The notes under the pieces: model-generated
The model's input: only the letters and a program-made list of their open reading frames with translations
The model's database searches: none
Told to the model about the DNA's origin: nothing
Program-made: the position numbers and the translations under genes
Virus record (IMG/VR): IMGVR_UViG_3300008267_000006
Location: 1-64,000 of that record
DNA: 64,000 bases
Source of the DNA: a virus
Reading direction: 5' to 3' (one strand)
Shown here: positions 21,495-47,347 of the stretch, in pieces
How positions within the stretch are numbered: the first letter of the stretch is position 1
Layout: every line of letters begins with the position of its first letter

Positions 21495-21502
21495 TTATTT
21501 TC

Positions 21503-21817
21503 CTACTTAACTCCACCTAGCTTAAACGCCATTTGTACTGCTTCTTTTTCTGTTAGCGTTTCACCTGAAACACTCCAGGTCCACTTTGACTCTTTTTTCT
21601 TGTCATCGTGAGATAATACTAAAGTTATTCCATTTTTAAGAGTAGTATATTTTTCTCCAAATTCTTTATCTACTTCCCATTCAACAATAATAGGTTCTTG
21701 TTTTGGAGGTGGAGGAGGTTCTGGATCCTTTTTTACACTAAAACCAACAAGAACAGCAATAATGAGCGCAAAACCGCCCCACTTTAGATAAGTTGTTAGA
21801 TTAGAAATTTTAAACAT
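21503..21817 (-). CDS. Membrane-anchored protein with Pro linker
   Basis: TM helix then PEPPPPPK. Confidence 0.6.
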   Translation of the reverse strand: MFKISNLTTYLKWGGFALIIAVLVGFSVKKDPEPPPPPKQEPIIVEWEVDKEFGEKYTTLKNGITLVLSHDDKKKESKWTWSVSGETLTEKEAVQMAFKLGGVK

Positions 21818-21826
21818 GATTTCTCC

Positions 21827-22537
21827 TTATTGTAATGTTTCTAATACATTTTTAATATGGTTAGGATCTATTACATTTGTCCAAATACCATCTTTATTTA
21901 TACTTAAATCATTTACGATATCAAAATCATTTCCACCAGCTTCGCATCTATCTCCAAAAAAATGCATAGTTTCATGAATGTTTTCTCTTATCCACTTAGA
22001 AGCTTGCTTTTTATTTTTTCCTTTTGCCTGAATATCTATGCTAATCTGTCCACCAATACACGCCTCGTAATCTTTACCAAATTTATTATTTATAAAATCA
22101 GCTATAGATTTTCTTTCTAATTTTTTTAGATCCCACTTAAAATAATCTTCTCTTTGTTGATCAGTTGCGTTTCTACCAACAATAGAAAAATTTAACATTC
22201 CTGATCTATTTTCAAAATGCTTGCCTGTTTTTGTATGATACTCGCTGGCCTCAAGATATTGTTCTAACCATGAATATAGTGCTTCTGGTATTCTTAAAGA
22301 ATTTTTATATTTTAATTCTCCATTAATATATAATTCATTTGCCATAGAACAAAAAATACCATTACATCTATCTAATATTCTTTCGCTCAGTTGTTCTTTA
22401 ACTTTAGATAAGTCACTACCTGTAACAAAAAATACTTTCTTATCTTTCATCCAATTATAGAAAAATTCTTCAAAATCTACAGATATTTTTTGTCTTGGAA
22501 GAGTTAAAGTTCCATCAATATCAAATAAGTAAATCAT
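21827..22537 (-). CDS. HAD-IIB phosphomannomutase (PMM-like)
   Basis: FDIDGTLT, VTGSD, ENRSGMLNFSIVGR, IGGQISID, FFGDRC..GGND. Confidence 0.88.
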   Translation of the reverse strand: MIYLFDIDGTLTLPRQKISVDFEEFFYNWMKDKKVFFVTGSDLSKVKEQLSERILDRCNGIFCSMANELYINGELKYKNSLRIPEALYSWLEQYLEASEYHTKTGKHFENRSGMLNFSIVGRNATDQQREDYFKWDLKKLERKSIADFINNKFGKDYEACIGGQISIDIQAKGKNKKQASKWIRENIHETMHFFGDRCEAGGNDFDIVNDLSINKDGIWTNVIDPNHIKNVLETLQ

Positions 22538-22538
22538 T

Positions 22539-23267
22539 TTATCCTCTTACTTCGTAATACGCTTTAATTGTCTCGGGATATAGTCCCTCAAGGATACGTA
22601 GCATCGCTTCCGCGACGACTTGTATCTCGTATTGCGCGCCATCGTGACTCCTTAGATCAATAAACTTAAGAATATTATTTAGATTTGCACTTGCATAATA
22701 TTCTGTATATAAATTTTGTGGAAGTACACCGCGAGCTTGTTCACGACAAACGCCTGCTTCCATTAAATTATTATATAATTTGACCGAATTTTCATGCCAG
22801 TTTTTAACTACTTTTGATGCTGAAAGTAACATACCCATTGAGCCATCTCCAAAATCTAGAATGGGATCAATTTGCTCGTCGTTATTACTTGCTTGTCGGT
22901 TATTAGAATGCTGAGTTCTAAAAGTTTTAGGTTCGTAGAACTCAAGACTCTCTGCTGTATAACGGCGACTGATTTCGTTATAACTCCAGGTACGATGACG
23001 ATGATGTTGTGATCTGATAAACAGTGGCACCACACATTTAAAAGTTACGTTGCAGTGCTCTAATGTACTTGTATGTCTGTGTTTTATTAGATAACGAATT
23101 AATTTTTTATCTTTATCAGATAAAAGATCTCCACTTTCATCTTTTCCAAAGCTAACTCTTGCTGCTCGCACTATTGTAGCGTCTGAACCCATTGATTGTA
23201 CAAGTTGTACTCTTCCGATACCATCACCGTATAGATCAATACTGATATTTTTATCTTCGTGATTCAC
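22539..23267 (-). CDS. thyX: Flavin-dependent thymidylate synthase
   Basis: AARVS, HTSTLEH, RHRTWSYNEISRRY, REQARGVLP, AQYEI; GTG start. Confidence 0.96.
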   Translation of the reverse strand: MNHEDKNISIDLYGDGIGRVQLVQSMGSDATIVRAARVSFGKDESGDLLSDKDKKLIRYLIKHRHTSTLEHCNVTFKCVVPLFIRSQHHRHRTWSYNEISRRYTAESLEFYEPKTFRTQHSNNRQASNNDEQIDPILDFGDGSMGMLLSASKVVKNWHENSVKLYNNLMEAGVCREQARGVLPQNLYTEYYASANLNNILKFIDLRSHDGAQYEIQVVAEAMLRILEGLYPETIKAYYEVRG

Positions 23268-23269
23268 TT

Positions 23270-23983
23270 TTATTCCTTCCAGGTTATACCTTTAACTATT
23301 TTTCTTATTGTAGCTGTACTAACATTATATTTTTTTGATAGCTCTACGTATTTACCTCTGGTGTCATCAAAAATATTTTTAATTTCTTTTACTTGCTCTA
23401 ATGTTAGTTTAGAGCTTGGATTTTTTTCACCATTTATATCTGAATTGTTATATTTTAATCCTTTATTCCAGGCCGGCTCTCTAATAACCGTTTTTGTCTC
23501 TATTGCTTTTATTTCTGGTGTAACCCAATTTTTCATCCATTGAAGGATTTTTTCAAAATCATCTATTGATCCATTGCTTTTTAAATTATTCATTTTTCTA
23601 GAGATCCAAGAAACATTTCCTTTCGTGTATCCAAGTTCTGGATTAAATCTGTCCAGTTCGGCTACATTCTCAGAACTTCTATCTTCATGCGAAGAAGACC
23701 ATTCTAATTTTATTCCGCTTATAGGACAAAATTCTGTCCATATTTGTTCTAGATAAACCTCATCAAGATCATAAGGAATCTTTCTTTGCTTACAAGAAGC
23801 TTTCATTTTTACATGCCTGGCAAGAAATGGATTATTTTTTTTATATTTATAATAATTTTTTCTTTGATTTTTATTTTTACATTCTTTGCAAGTTTTTCTA
23901 TATTTTCCTGCATTTTTAGAATCCTTGCGGAATGAAAAATCAGCTTCTTGTTTTTCTAGTTTACATGAGTTACATCTTATCAT
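23270..23983 (-). mobile_element. Free-standing HNH/EndoVII-like homing endonuclease with Zn finger and C-terminal HTH
   Basis: CNSC..CKEC, CPISG, ELDRFNPELGYTKGNVSWISRKMNNLK, PAWNKG, KLTLEQV; own ACTATTTAT at 23998-24006. Confidence 0.75.
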
Positions 23984-24023
23984 AATTTTCTCCTATAATA
24001 AATAGTAACCCAAGCATTATTTG

Positions 24024-24101
24024 CTAATAATAATCACTTCCGACGTGATCAACAAGTTCCACTTTTCCGATTCCATCACCATAAATATCTATTTTATTCA
24101 T
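24024..24101 (-). pseudogene. Stranded 5' remnant of a thyX allele (25 aa)
   Basis: MNKIDIYGDGIGKVELVDHVGSDYY* versus ThyX SIDLYGDGIGRVQLVQSMGSD. Confidence 0.85.
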
Positions 24102-24381
24102 TTTTCACCAAAATTCCATACACAGCATTTTCTGGTACAATACAGATTTTTAAATCATTATACTCAAAACTTTCTATCATATGAACTGGAACTAATAGTA
24201 ATTTTCCGTTTTCTTCAAAAAATTGTGAATCATCGGGTGCTTTTAAAAGCTTAACTATTTTTAGAACACTATTTTTTGGATTATAATCACTTGGTAATAC
24301 AAATCCTTCTAAACTATCATTTGATTTTTTTGTTTCTAAAATCTCTACGTGCAGAAACTTATTTCTTGGAAAAAAATCCAT
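24094..24381 (-). CDS. GroES/Cpn10-like co-chaperonin
   Basis: FPRNKFLHVE, mobile-loop-like LEGFVLP, terminal IVPENAVYGIL. Confidence 0.65.
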   Translation of the reverse strand: MDFFPRNKFLHVEILETKKSNDSLEGFVLPSDYNPKNSVLKIVKLLKAPDDSQFFEENGKLLLVPVHMIESFEYNDLKICIVPENAVYGILVKNE

Positions 24382-24382
24382 A

Positions 24383-24640
24383 TTACCCACCCGTTACTTT
24401 TTTATACATACTCTCAAGTTCAGCAAAATCTGTTTCATCTTTCATAAGACGATAAGCTTTAATCACATTTTTCATTTCACTTTTTGAAAGCCAGTCATTT
24501 TCAACGTAGTTTTTCTTTAGATCTGATCTCTGTTCCTTAAATGGCTGCATCGCTTGCTCAATCGCTTGCATAGCTTTAACGAATTCACGAACTCTTTCCT
24601 CTTTTGTTTTCTTGTCTGCTTCTACTGAATGAATGATCAT
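24383..24640 (-). CDS. Small helical DNA-binding protein (T4 DsbA / GapR-like)
   Basis: VREFVKAMQAIE...KEQRSDLK...KNVIKAYR...ELESMY pattern. Confidence 0.45.
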   Translation of the reverse strand: MIIHSVEADKKTKEERVREFVKAMQAIEQAMQPFKEQRSDLKKNYVENDWLSKSEMKNVIKAYRLMKDETDFAELESMYKKVTGG

Positions 24641-24876
24641 AATATCTCCTTTATTTTCTCGGCCAGTCGAGCTAGCTCATGGTTCAATCTACCACGCTTG
24701 TCGTACTCTGTCAAGTCATAAAAATCTACTTCTATACCAGTTTCTTCTTCATCAACTAGAAATTTAGCAAATGAACTAAATTGTTCATCTATATAAAAAG
24801 ACTTTCTTTTAACGGTTATATCTTTGCCAACTAGTTTACTTAAGCGATCTTCTAAAAAACGAATATTTGAATACAT
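24637..24876 (-). CDS. Hypothetical protein
   Basis: GGAG RBS before MYSN. Confidence 0.55.
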   Translation of the reverse strand: MYSNIRFLEDRLSKLVGKDITVKRKSFYIDEQFSSFAKFLVDEEETGIEVDFYDLTEYDKRGRLNHELARLAEKIKEIL

Positions 24877-24887
24877 ATTATCTCCAC

Positions 24888-24936
24888 AAAAAAGACACCC
24901 TACGGAAAACATACCATAGGGTGTCTAGAATGTAAA
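24888..24936 (-). promoter_or_regulatory. nrdJ terminator with -10 element in its loop
   Basis: GACACCCTATGG/CCGTAGGGTGTC plus TTTTT; TTTACA(24931-24936)-17-TATGTT(24908-24913). Confidence 0.65.
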
Positions 24937-24951
24937 GAGTTTACTAATTTA

Positions 24952-26811
24952 TTAACGAACTGGACAAGCTCCTCCTTCGCACTCCATTGAGCTTTCCAAA
25001 TTTCCTTCACCAACGTCAGTATCAGCAATTGGTTTAATTTTAGCTGATAGACGCTCGTATTGCTCCTTGGTTATTGTTTCTTTTGGAGCTTGTTTGAAGC
25101 CGTGTTCACTGTGGCATAGGAATGAGATAGTCTTTAGATATTTAAGATTCTCACCTAACCATGTTTTTAACCCTTCTATATCTTCGCGTTTATAATAAAC
25201 AGTTACTGAAACAGATTGATCGGCCCAGTGTTTTTGAGCCATCTTAACAACGTCTAATTGCTTCCACGTTGTCCAGTCTTCATCTGCTACTGGCGCACCT
25301 TCTGGTGCTGCTACATAAAAATCTACAACAAGCGTGTTGTGATCTAACGAGCCATCAAATCTTACTACTGGCTCCATGTAATGACCAGCTTCCTTTAATA
25401 GAGGAATCAGCGCATCGTTTGCAGAAAAGCGTACACGTTGAATAATGTAACGAGAGTAGCCTGGATGTACTCCTTCAAAACAATCAAAAACTTTTGAAAT
25501 AGTTCCAGATGGTTTAATTACAGTAGTACGAATACTTTCTGGAATTCCTAATTCTTTAGAATATTCCCGATTTTCATCTTGAATAGCAGCATAGGCACGA
25601 TCTAGAGTTTCTGGTTTAAACAGAGGAGATTGTAGACATCCAGTAATGCCTGTTCCAATACGACGATTACGTTTAACTACAGCGTCACATTTTGGTTGGT
25701 GGTATTTCTCCATAGTTACGCGTTTACCCCAGCGATGCATAAGGCGAGCAGCTTCTATAAATTCTGCCTCGTTAGCAAGATTTGGCAAAGCAATTTCTTG
25801 TAGGTTGCAAGGTTCACCATCTTCAAGAGTAGCCTCTGCACATGGATTTACACCAACTGCACTATCGGCTTTTAGTTCTCCCATGCGTGCATATTTTTGA
25901 ATATTAGTTCGGTTAACGATACCGAATGGTTCGCCTTCTTCGTAGGTCTTCCAGAATAGTGGATGTAGATCTTCTACGTCATCCACGACAACTGAAAAAT
26001 TAGCCATCGCACGTTGAGTTGGGATATTGCCAAGATCCCAACGTTTAGCCTTTAAGTATTCTTTATCCCAAGGATCGCCAAGAATAATAATAGCTGAACG
26101 ACGCACATTACCGGCAACGACCATTTCAGCAATCGAACACAAGATATCAGCAGCGTCAAGAGGTTTAACGTGCTTTCCGCCTCTAGTATTGAGGATTCCG
26201 CATAGTTTTTCCGCAAACGCAATAAGAGGTTTTGGACCTGATGAAGTACCTCCAAAACCGCGTATAGGCTCACCAGCAGGACGAACGCATACAGTAGAAT
26301 AGCTAAAAGATTTACCAGTAACAAAATAACTCTCCAAAATACGACGAGTCAATTCGTTCCATCCTTCTCGACTATCAGATACTATAAAATCAGCATCTTT
26401 ACTGTCACGATTTACGATATGCACGTCGCGTTTGACTTTAGGAAGCTTGCTGACAAATCTGTGTTCAACAGACATACCAACACCACCACCTAACATAAGT
26501 AGGTCTTGAGCAAGAATAAAGTTGGTCCAATCGTCACTAGCAACAAACCAGCAGTTGTTTAATGCTACACCGCCAAGACGTTTATGCGATGGAGCACCAG
26601 AATACCACCAACCACGACCAGCAGGACCGGCTTTACGTTCCGTTAAATAATATTTTAGTTTATTAATTTCACCCTCAGAAACATTATGTCCTACTGTATT
26701 TCCACGAATAATTCTATCAACTGTATCTTCCCAGTTTTCTAGCAAACCAGTGTCATTACGTGCATAGGTTCGCTTATAAACAACTTTAGCTAGATTGGAC
26801 CAATTTGACAT
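24952..26811 (-). CDS. nrdJ: Class II (B12-dependent) ribonucleotide reductase
   Basis: RTYAR, PAGR, NNC, LGGGVG, DSREGW, GNVRRSA, NPCAE, CNLQE, KPSGT, C-terminal CEGGACP. Confidence 0.93.
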   Translation of the reverse strand: MSNWSNLAKVVYKRTYARNDTGLLENWEDTVDRIIRGNTVGHNVSEGEINKLKYYLTERKAGPAGRGWWYSGAPSHKRLGGVALNNCWFVASDDWTNFILAQDLLMLGGGVGMSVEHRFVSKLPKVKRDVHIVNRDSKDADFIVSDSREGWNELTRRILESYFVTGKSFSYSTVCVRPAGEPIRGFGGTSSGPKPLIAFAEKLCGILNTRGGKHVKPLDAADILCSIAEMVVAGNVRRSAIIILGDPWDKEYLKAKRWDLGNIPTQRAMANFSVVVDDVEDLHPLFWKTYEEGEPFGIVNRTNIQKYARMGELKADSAVGVNPCAEATLEDGEPCNLQEIALPNLANEAEFIEAARLMHRWGKRVTMEKYHQPKCDAVVKRNRRIGTGITGCLQSPLFKPETLDRAYAAIQDENREYSKELGIPESIRTTVIKPSGTISKVFDCFEGVHPGYSRYIIQRVRFSANDALIPLLKEAGHYMEPVVRFDGSLDHNTLVVDFYVAAPEGAPVADEDWTTWKQLDVVKMAQKHWADQSVSVTVYYKREDIEGLKTWLGENLKYLKTISFLCHSEHGFKQAPKETITKEQYERLSAKIKPIADTDVGEGNLESSMECEGGACPVR

Positions 26812-46201: not shown

Positions 46202-46768
46202 CTATATTGGAAATCCTGGTGATACATCTTTTGTTCTACTTGTCGATTCTTTTACCAACTCCGCCCAGTCATATTGAATAGTAAGCGATACATCAACAAA
46301 GCCTTCATTTTCATAACTTAAAGTTCCATAATTAACATTTGTAATCATTGGATTATTTACTTTCCAAGTTTCTAATGTTTGACCATTTTCATCTATTTGT
46401 TTTAAATCAAAGCTTTTTCCACAATCTTTTTGTATTTGTTGTAGTTTTCCATCTTTTGGTGGTTGATAGCCAAGTTGTAGAATATATTGATGAATTAAAT
46501 TTGGTAAATAATTACCCTTATCATCAGCAGCAGAAACAAATTTTATATCAATAGGTTTCCACTTTAAATTACCTGGAAATTTTATTGGCTGACCTAATAA
46601 CTTATATTCATTAACATCTATATCATAGCTTGGTTTTGAACATTCTTTAAGCGCATAAACAAAAGAATCGGCGTTTTGGACAGATGAACTTAAATAAGTT
46701 CCAAAATCAATAAACCATCTATTTTGTCTTAATGGTTCTTTTAATATTTTTTCTGTCCAAAACGCCAT
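46202..46768 (-). CDS. Tail tube protein paralogue 2 (gp19-like)
   Basis: EPLRQNRW, KFPGNLKW, ETWKV, YGTLSY, QYDWA. Confidence 0.8.
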   Translation of the reverse strand: MAFWTEKILKEPLRQNRWFIDFGTYLSSSVQNADSFVYALKECSKPSYDIDVNEYKLLGQPIKFPGNLKWKPIDIKFVSAADDKGNYLPNLIHQYILQLGYQPPKDGKLQQIQKDCGKSFDLKQIDENGQTLETWKVNNPMITNVNYGTLSYENEGFVDVSLTIQYDWAELVKESTSRTKDVSPGFPI

Positions 46769-46780
46769 TTAAAAGCCTTA

Positions 46781-47347
46781 TTATTTTTCAGGGAAACCTG
46801 GACTATCACCAGGTACTAGATCAATGGATTCATCAAAATCGTTCAATTTAGCCCAATCATATTTTAATGTACAAGTAATTTCAACTATTTCTTCACTACC
46901 ATAATCAAGAGCACCAAATTGAACTGATGTAAATAATGGTTTATAAATTTGCCATTTTTCTCTGGTATTGCCGTCTGGATCTATTTGAATAAGATCAATT
47001 GTACCTATTGCACTATTCATCTTATTTTTTCCAATGGTTGATTTATCAGTTTCAGTATTTTTGCCAGATGGAACTCCATAACCAGATTTGGTTAAAATAT
47101 CAAAAAGTATTTTTGAGCCATTTGGTTCTGCTACTGCTGCGAATGTAACGTTTATATCTTCCCACTCAAGACGACCTGGATAATTAAAATAATGATTTAT
47201 ATATTTATGTTGAATTGTAGATATTTTTGCTTTTGGCTTATCAGCTTTTTTTAATGCATATGATATTTTTCCTAAATCTGTAGAAAAATTCATATACCAT
47301 CTAAACTGCCTTAAAGGCTCTTCTGTTTGTACGCTCCAAAATGACAT
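46781..47347 (-). CDS. Tail tube protein paralogue 1 (gp19-like)
   Basis: EPLRQFRW, YPGRLEW, EKWQI, FGALDY, KYDWA. Confidence 0.85.
   Translation of the reverse strand: MSFWSVQTEEPLRQFRWYMNFSTDLGKISYALKKADKPKAKISTIQHKYINHYFNYPGRLEWEDINVTFAAVAEPNGSKILFDILTKSGYGVPSGKNTETDKSTIGKNKMNSAIGTIDLIQIDPDGNTREKWQIYKPLFTSVQFGALDYGSEEIVEITCTLKYDWAKLNDFDESIDLVPGDSPGFPEK

Follow-up and report, generated by a model that had tools for sequence, protein, structure and literature searches.

A candidate end-replacement homing cassette at the thyX gene of an uncultured phage

The stretch of DNA analysed here, called the window throughout, comprises the first 64 kb of a 111-kb contig of an uncultured virus (IMG/VR record IMGVR_UViG_3300008267_000006, CheckV completeness about 59%). 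In this window a complete thyX gene is directly preceded by a free-standing gene for an endonuclease-like protein of 237 amino acids, and in front of the latter a short second copy of a thyX start is found, an open reading frame (ORF) of 25 codons which is referred to as the stub in the following. The arrangement is probably an end-replacement homing cassette, in which an HNH-like endonuclease gene with a promoter-like motif and a ribosome binding site of its own lies immediately upstream of thyX and would have provided this gene with a new 5' end. The stub ORF, its overlap with the ORF upstream of it, the ribosome binding site, the endonuclease gene, and the intact thyX were all found at the positions where the original prediction, which had been made from the letters of the sequence, had placed them. 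All genes around the locus are encoded on the minus strand.

Alignment of the stub with residues 10 to 29 of the resident thyX yielded 14 identical residues out of 20, and the likeness stops exactly after the codons for GSD (position 24033). This agrees with the proposal that the stub is homologous to the start of thyX and that the similarity ends at this motif. A tblastx comparison of stub and thyX from flank to flank gave 39 bits, as compared to a maximum of 36 bits in 80 controls with mismatched flanks. When the first and the last 45 residues of each ORF of at least 80 amino acids were searched against the whole window, the pair of stub and thyX was the sole end-duplication found other than full paralogue pairs (E value 4.5e-6).

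The origin of the stub became apparent from comparison with related loci, which are designated by L numbers. Over the 42 nucleotides of codons 10 to 23 the stub is identical at 40–41 positions to the intact thyX of locus L013, which carries no endonuclease gene, and at only 25 positions to the resident thyX of the window. For other full-length alleles 27 to 35 of these 42 positions are identical, and the mean among twelve full-length thyX alleles compared with each other is 31.5. The stubs of loci L001 and L124 match at 39 to 41 positions. The stub is thus the native start of an L013-like thyX, as had been expected if it were to match the gene start at sites that have remained empty. At the protein level 18 to 19 of 23 amino acids are identical to full-length thyX starts of relatives. 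Such empty sites exist in L013, L015, and L031, in L014 and L017, and in L027, where a thyX with the KVELVD-type start directly follows a homologue of the 98-amino-acid ORF located upstream of the stub and no endonuclease gene is present. A degenerate search of viral contigs with the peptide motif of the stub yielded 20 loci. Nineteen of these are full-length or contig-truncated thyX genes running past GSD into the LT(I/V)VNSARVSF region, and the lone stub among them is L025, which shares its contig with L001. Related genomes differ in whether this locus holds the endonuclease gene, the empty sites and the deletion derivative L001 described below being the two forms without it.

The last 42 nucleotides of the stub (93–98% nucleotide identity) are more conserved than the adjoining endonuclease gene (75% amino acid identity between the window and L124). 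I-TevI represses its own synthesis by binding to an operator. By analogy, the 3' part of the stub may have been kept as one half of the recognition site and, in addition, as an operator for autorepression.

The resident thyX itself is a mosaic. Its residues 1–90 are 98–100% identical to L001 and the rest is 77% identical, and in residues 186–242 the identity is 88% with L013 and 77% with L001. Informative sites resembling L001 and L013 occur in a ratio of 100:5 before nucleotide 332 and of 48:65 thereafter (Fisher p 2e-18), so that the predicted phylogenetic discordance between the 5' and the 3' part of the gene holds, with a breakpoint near nucleotide 332 as expected for co-conversion of target gene sequence flanking an endonuclease gene. 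From these comparisons the 3' portion looks like the resident backbone. The original prediction had also assumed a diverged replacement of about 25 codons which restores the gene. The gene is indeed complete, but the replaced part corresponds to a co-conversion tract of at least about 110 codons. The unusual MN(H/Y)ED start of the window thyX was found as well in the stub-less loci L032 and L125, where it stands behind homologous endonuclease genes (44% and 68% identical). The foreign N-terminus of thyX hence travels with the endonuclease gene. A weak candidate for a stub upstream of the L032 endonuclease gene proved to be a terminator-like hairpin with a score not above that of shuffled sequences (28 of 500) and was rejected.

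The window, L001, and L124, which come from different samples, have the same type of stub and the same junction sequence after GSD. They also have in common the endonuclease gene or its last approximately 45 bp, and the last approximately 24 nucleotides before the endonuclease start codon are kept in addition in the stub-less loci L125, L126, and L032 (18–22 of 24 nucleotides). Among the window, L001, and L124 the identity is about 60% at the 3' end of the upstream gene, 59–81% in codons 1–9 of the stub, and 93–98% in codons 10–23. The upstream genes of all three are unrelated at the DNA level, those of the window and L001 encoding proteins with 38% of their amino acids in common; DNA identity between these two is 81% in nrdJ and about 90–95% in the first 330–450 nucleotides or so of thyX. 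As identity is higher from the middle of the stub to the middle of thyX than in the flanks, this block has been shared more recently than its surroundings, and it appears to be the footprint of gene conversion around the endonuclease gene. L001 has lost its endonuclease gene save for the last approximately 45 bp, which hold the Shine-Dalgarno sequence of thyX, and both the stub and a full thyX are retained. Homing endonuclease genes pass through a cycle of gain, decay, and loss, and the deletion in L001 fits such a cycle. What follows the endonuclease gene in L124 is a far more diverged thyX-like allele (1072–1194), which still contains a GSDLT motif and occurs also in L118 (516–635); the L124 contig stops 41 codons into this gene. 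The divergent allele may represent a second class of thyX in this phage group.

Expression of the window thyX does not seem to require any processing of the RNA. Its GTG start codon begins 2 nucleotides past the endonuclease stop codon, and a Shine-Dalgarno-like GGAAGGA is located within the final endonuclease codons. A search of positions 21500–25500 against Rfam with E values up to 1 gave no intron and only a below-threshold hit to a small RNA. Neither a flanking ribozyme nor exons in need of joining, the hallmarks of a group I intron, were seen, the downstream thyX ORF being complete alone. The view that no splicing takes place is therefore borne out by the lack of an intron signal in this region and by the gene's own ribosome binding site and start. 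The endonuclease gene is preceded by a promoter-like motif of 12 nucleotides with the consensus ACTATTTATWAT, which occurs nine times in the window with at most one mismatch as compared to 3.85 copies expected. All nine copies are on the coding strand (e.g., 13130–13119, 24006–23995, 32297–32286, and 50214–50203), those inspected by eye lie a few tens of nucleotides upstream of ORF starts, and the motif is kept upstream of homologous endonuclease genes at other loci. It is probably a phage promoter element.

The layout of stub, endonuclease gene, and target gene is not confined to this locus; as had been suggested, a survey of phage sequences showed that it is met again at thyX and dnaE and also at another gene. 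In a first survey of 80 viral loci with related endonuclease genes the endonuclease directly precedes thyX in 12 and directly follows thyX in 5. A 5' stub of thyX was found upstream of the endonuclease in four of the 12 (L033–L036) and, in addition, at the metagenome locus L127. The z-scores of these recurrent stubs against shuffled sequences were 14.8, 4.3, 4.3, and 2.3, and all of them end between five codons before and two codons after GSD. Altogether there are eight loci whose stubs end close to the GSD codons. For L034, 13 of 14 positions of the stub agree with the start of the full-length thyX in L053. L033, L034, and L127 have a common cassette allele with different stubs, and the upstream flanks of all stub loci are mutually unrelated. 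The mirror image of the layout was observed in L050 (1–1300) and L052 (1–1370), which contain a full thyX, a short related endonuclease gene (121–124 amino acids), an unrelated ORF, and a 3' stub of thyX. These 3' stubs start at the conserved SGSLDAF region and scored 85 and 68 bits (control maximum 36). A second survey covered 74 loci with GIY-YIG genes. At L146:2171–3471, and also at L142, L143, and L147, a gene for a membrane protein of about 100 amino acids is followed by a GIY-YIG gene and a 65-amino-acid 3' fragment of the same membrane-protein gene. Gene and fragment show 44–57% amino acid identity to one another, and thus a third kind of gene is affected by end replacement, here again at the 3' end; the membrane protein gave no match in Pfam. 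Coding stubs were present at 6 of the 80 endonuclease loci in the first survey and at 5 of the 74 in the second. Short noncoding direct repeats with stop codons, scoring 26–32 bits, flank the GIY-YIG genes of L208/L209 and L211. These repeats may be duplicated regulatory or RNA-gene sequence and as such a noncoding analogue of the stubs.

Only two endonuclease-like genes were detected in the window, and stubs were found at both. The second one precedes dnaE. It possesses a GIY-YIG catalytic domain along with NUMOD3 and helix-turn-helix modules, as is typical of GIY-YIG homing endonucleases, and it shares the C-terminal helix-turn-helix with the thyX-linked protein (38% identity over 53 amino acids). 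In its first eight residues the dnaE stub is the same as the start of the L120 dnaE; past a frameshift of one nucleotide the stub is collinear with dnaE to the first, HNH-type PHP motif, with an 8-nucleotide identity at the matching offset. The ORF upstream of this stub contains a ligase-type KLDGVR motif, as read by eye. A clearer parallel was found at L138:2120–3900, which contains a 20-amino-acid 5' stub of dnaE and a small ORF of about 95 amino acids from a family that is repeated locally, followed by a GIY-YIG/NUMOD3 gene and a dnaE that is intact. The GIY-YIG gene of L138, for which the class was confirmed directly, is 40% identical to the dnaE-linked endonuclease of the window. Owing to its position and to this parallel the dnaE stub of the window is probable. 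Among the dnaE loci compared no relative had the ligase-like ORF beside dnaE or a GIY-YIG gene upstream of dnaE, so that the comparison with empty sites rests only on dnaE start sequences in this case. The suggestion that the same layout occurs at dnaE thus stands insofar as stub, GIY-YIG gene, and dnaE all exist, with the reservation that the stub is short and frameshifted.

The thyX-linked protein of 237 amino acids matches the PHROG families phrog_3322 (E value 1e-26) and phrog_1035, annotated as endonuclease VII (E value 8e-21), and no nuclease match was obtained in Pfam. A protein search gave 19 homologues with 44–92% identity. Scanning of viral contigs with the single protein found none, and a pattern scan based on the alignment retrieved at least 474 relatives. 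The protein is composed of an N-terminal cysteine-rich region, a core resembling HNH/beta-beta-alpha-Me nucleases, and a C-terminal helix-turn-helix. An AlphaFold model with a pLDDT of 85 was obtained, in which residues 42–155 had HNH/beta-beta-alpha-Me nucleases as best fold matches (McrA with Z 6.3, PacI with Z 6.0, and Gme HNH with Z 5.3) and residues 177–237 matched homeodomain-like helix-turn-helix folds. A search of PDB sequences with the endonuclease profile gave nothing meaningful. Nuclease activity of the protein is suggested by homology and by its genomic behaviour.

With these data a sequence of events can be proposed by which the present arrangement would have arisen. The endonuclease would have entered the genome of an L013-like phage in which thyX directly followed the 98-amino-acid ORF, and the resident thyX would have been broken at or near codons 23–27, i.e., in the conserved GSD / LT(I/V)VN region at the end of the stub. 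On the right side of the break, homologous recombination inside thyX would have copied at least about 330 nucleotides of the 5' part of the donor thyX as a co-conversion tract. On the left side the donor DNA would have been joined at the break itself, as the upstream flank of the donor was not homologous, and the first 23 codons of the resident gene would have remained as a stub coupled to the upstream gene. Double-strand-break repair with one-sided homology is the best-supported pathway for such an event. The outcome would be a complete thyX which is translated from its own Shine-Dalgarno sequence and GTG start and needs no splicing. Since the region equivalent to the target is recoded (25 of 42 nucleotides in common with the stub), the resident allele should be immune to cutting. 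Stub (about 70 bp, on the left) and thyX body (on the right) could then serve as two homology arms for homing into an intact L013-type thyX, by which the cassette might still be mobile today. The step in identity inside the stub is what crossovers within the stub would produce. Once no longer selected the endonuclease gene could be lost, as seen in L001. By its overlap with the stop codon of the 98-amino-acid ORF, the stub ATG appears to preserve the ancestral translational coupling of this ORF to thyX.

A more general proposal would be that end-replacement homing is a self-propagating strategy of free-standing phage endonucleases that is shared by two or more nuclease superfamilies and operates at either end of a gene, and in which the recoded gene end is the immunity allele and one repair arm and the stub is the other arm, thus allowing invasion of conserved coding sequence in phages which otherwise share nothing with the donor. 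This is put forward tentatively, as a possibility which falls somewhat short of being probable. Several observations weigh against the interpretation as a homing cassette. The catalytic Asp-His of HNH/Endo VII enzymes is replaced by ELDR, the position of the histidine being occupied by arginine in all 19 homologues (alignment A1). The fold matches are moderate (Z 5–6.3, best Foldseek E value 0.017, nothing at E values up to 0.001), and two further, weaker PHROG matches of the protein are to non-nuclease families, the T4 Srd-like "anti-sigma / sigma70 decoy" families. For these reasons catalytic competence is not assured, and proteins of the ELDR family may cut, nick, or merely bind DNA. A stub is absent at most endonuclease–thyX loci, namely at eight of the 12 viral ones as well as at L002, L125, and L126, from which it follows that the stub is not required for persistence of the element. 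At dnaE the stub is weak at the DNA level, 7–11 of 300 shuffled sequences reaching its score. The relatives compared are metagenomic contigs throughout. Finally, the one junction shared by the window, L001, and L124 points to a single origin of the stub in this clade, and ordinary recombination and true homing cannot be separated by sequence comparison as the mode of its spread there.

A single origin would also be expected if the stub were the incidental scar of one or a few events of one-sided illegitimate repair or recombination, in which a pair of endonuclease and thyX entered a non-syntenic genome and afterwards spread by descent and general recombination, with no role of the stub as homology arm and no dedicated strategy behind it. 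This explanation would account for the stub-less loci and for the mutually unrelated upstream flanks of the stub loci, where one-sided repair is expected, and one-sided illegitimate repair during homing has been documented in T4 according to the summary given in a review (PMC2988022). It has its origin step in common with the proposed homing cassette and differs from it in later mobility only. As the block of high identity begins inside the stub rather than at its end or further upstream, and as stubs recur at the same position of thyX with different endonuclease alleles and backgrounds, a mere scar is regarded as rather unlikely. Local tandem duplication of the 5' end of thyX, with later insertion of the endonuclease between the copies and divergence in place, is far less probable still. 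Direct repeats around an insert can arise in this way, and in L035 stub and resident start are close (17 of 22 amino acids). In the window, however, 40 of 42 nucleotides of the stub agree with the intact thyX of another genome and only 25 with the resident copy, and the 5' part of the latter groups with the endonuclease-accompanying alleles of L001, L032, and L125. Divergence in place cannot yield such a pattern of alleles, the stub being L013-like and the resident 5' part cassette-like.

Group I introns of phage nucleotide-metabolism genes often house homing endonuclease genes (PMC2988022), and the stub might accordingly be viewed as exon 1 of a split thyX with the endonuclease residing in a self-splicing intron or being removed at the RNA level. 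Given the Rfam result, the complete conserved N-terminus with its own Shine-Dalgarno sequence and start in the downstream ORF, the duplication of residues which joining of stub and thyX would create, and the retention of stub plus full thyX in L001 after loss of the endonuclease, hardly any likelihood remains for this explanation. The window is part of a contig assembled from a metagenome, and related alleles co-occur in such samples, so that two thyX alleles of co-occurring phages could in principle have been joined during assembly; this had been named from the outset as an outcome that would overturn the original prediction. The same arrangement was however found in independent contigs of other samples (L001/L025 and L124), and no fewer than ten other contigs show analogous ones. 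A chimera is excluded for practical purposes by the junction common to three independent contigs, and among the explanations considered it is the least likely one.

Positions of the thyX and dnaE elements and of nearby genes in the window
Feature	Position	Strand	Remarks
98-amino-acid ORF upstream of stub	24390-24094	-	last codons and stop overlap the stub by 8 nt
thyX 5' stub, 25-codon ORF	24101-24024	-	codons 1-23 native (to 24033), followed by 2 foreign ones and stop
Left junction and endonuclease upstream region	24032-23984	-	promoter-like motif 24006-23995, then ribosome binding site
Homing-endonuclease-like gene, 237 amino acids, free-standing	23983-23270	-	PHROG matches, fold matches
Complete thyX, GTG start	23267-22539	-	Pfam Thy1, E value 8e-50
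Putative cassette-borne thyX 5' part with recoded target region	23267-22936	-	groups with L001 up to nt ~332
thyX remainder, variable middle, last ~57 codons closest to L013	22935-22539	-	resembles resident backbone
Class II-like ribonucleotide reductase (nrdJ)	26811-24952	-	nearby gene
Phosphomannomutase-like gene	22537-21827	-	directly downstream of the window thyX
Cpn60/GroEL homologue, phage-encoded	4976-3408	-	Pfam E value 5e-65
Degenerate dnaE 5' stub	~17706-17654	-	ATG in TAATG overlap with stop of upstream ORF
GIY-YIG/NUMOD3 homing endonuclease gene	17652-16915	-	PHROG phrog_314, E value 2e-29; Pfam PF01541, PF07460
Intact dnaE (DnaE-type polymerase)	16915-13484	-	probable start 16915-16913, TAATG overlap with endonuclease stop

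The 98-amino-acid ORF in front of the stub had been labelled groES-like in the original prediction and yielded no match in Pfam or PHROG. It may nevertheless be the co-chaperonin of the Cpn60/GroEL homologue encoded in the window. Two adjacent paralogues of 188 amino acids on the minus strand (46202–46768 and 46781–47347) are about 40% identical at both ends and represent a tandem duplication unrelated to the cassette. The nrdJ gene of L001 contains an insertion of approximately 1.26 kb at 1009–2269 which has no counterpart in the nrdJ of the window. An ORF over the 3' end of this insertion has a Pfam intein splicing domain (E value 7e-11) followed by a ribonucleotide reductase barrel domain, which identifies the insertion as an intein. 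Directly downstream of thyX in L001 an ORF of 56 amino acids (L001:4753–4923) has weak matches to helix-turn-helix-type Pfam domains (E values about 1e-3) and may be what is left of a second endonuclease's DNA-binding domain. In a blastn search of the locus region against 50,697 phage records no match was obtained, and a tblastn search of isolate phages with the window thyX gave relatives which all had less than 60% identity, none of them close. The phage group to which the window belongs is thus absent from the isolate collection.

If the interpretation as a homing cassette is correct, a homing endonuclease can colonise essential conserved coding sequence without intron, intein, or gene splitting by supplying a new gene end. 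Up to now such a mechanism has been described from fungal mitochondria, where 3' ends are replaced, and it would hereby be extended both to 5' ends and to phages. The stub ends mark the probable site of break and insertion to within a few codons, GSD / LT(I/V)VN in the case of ThyX and the first PHP motif in the case of DnaE, and therefore targets of uncharacterised endonucleases should be predictable from sequence alone, with the L013-type thyX as an intact natural target. It also matters for phylogenies and marker-gene studies that thyX and dnaE can be made chimeric by replacement of an end. Triplets of stub, endonuclease, and gene are simple to search for and may serve to recognise horizontal transfer among phages that are not otherwise related.

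The closest resemblance is found to the mORF elements of fungal mitochondria, and the suggestion that an undescribed system had been encountered does not stand as far as the principle is concerned, which has already been documented there for 3' ends of genes (PMC3630166; PMC6279837). In mORFs the endonuclease ORF brings along a foreign C-terminal segment that becomes joined to the resident gene, and the original C-terminus persists further downstream. They were first described for atp6 of Allomyces macrogynus and later for atp6, atp9, cox2, and nad3 of Glomus (PMC3630166). Partial C-terminal duplications of atp6 and cob flanked by endonuclease ORFs are known from Endoconidiophora (PMC6279837). 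In common with mORFs the window element has an endonuclease ORF along with a foreign gene end fused in frame to the resident gene, here at the 5' end, as well as the displaced native end kept beside this ORF as an unexpressed duplicate. In both, the native end resembles that of close relatives, the inserted end is discordant, and no intron is present. mORFs, however, are mitochondrial, replace 3' ends, and have LAGLIDADG or GIY-YIG endonucleases which are often fused in frame, whereas in the window a phage gene has a separate HNH-like gene upstream of its 5' end and the replacement brings its own translation start. Phage 3' versions exist too (L050, L052, and L142–L147). The window element works like a mORF but is not a member of that group. 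In the literature, as far as it was covered, which was incompletely, no account was found of replacement of a 5' end with a retained stub, nor of a phage version.

Among the free-standing phage enzymes, F-CphI and the DHHRN (Endo VII-motif) enzymes of cyanophages likewise have a beta-beta-alpha-Me-type core and adjoin their target gene (PMC6083498), and the window protein has its PHROG match to the endonuclease VII family. The pattern CX2-4C ... DHDH ... R ... CX2C-N of these enzymes (PMC6083498) is not found in the window family, which has ELDR instead of DHDH and no CX2C ahead of the conserved asparagine (alignment A1).

For one side of the junction a precedent exists in one-sided homing by illegitimate double-strand-break repair, which was observed with the td intron of T4 in the laboratory (Parker, Belisle and Belfort 1999, as summarised in PMC2988022). 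According to this summary homology is confined to one side of the break, and microhomology at the break or close to it provides the other junction. Ectopic or non-syntenic sites can be invaded in this way, and the outcome resembles what is seen in the window. By analogy such one-sided illegitimate repair would most likely be the origin of the stub. The td intron result is a laboratory finding, whereas a natural, recurrent, and apparently transmissible architecture is encountered here.

Phages are known to cope with the insertion of endonuclease genes in coding DNA by means of introns or inteins, by placement between genes, by splitting of the interrupted gene, or by the mobA/gene 60 element (PMC2988022). 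Intronless homing in T4 by SegF, SegG, and MobE is similar to the window in that a free-standing endonuclease lies beside its target, is present or absent among relatives, brings about co-conversion of flanking sequence, and has its transcription and translation embedded in the host operon (PMC2988022). The T4 genes are located between intact genes with no fragment of the target, whereas the insertion in the window is inside coding sequence and the displaced start remains. Insertions which split genes, as with mobE in nrdA of Aeh1, T4 mobA with the bypass in gene 60, or seg in gene 43, do place an endonuclease inside an essential coding region without intron or intein, and the associated sequence preserves the function of the gene and disrupts the target site (PMC2988022). 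There, the gene product is obtained from two reassembling polypeptides or by ribosomal bypassing, whereas thyX in the window stays in one piece by virtue of its new 5' part.

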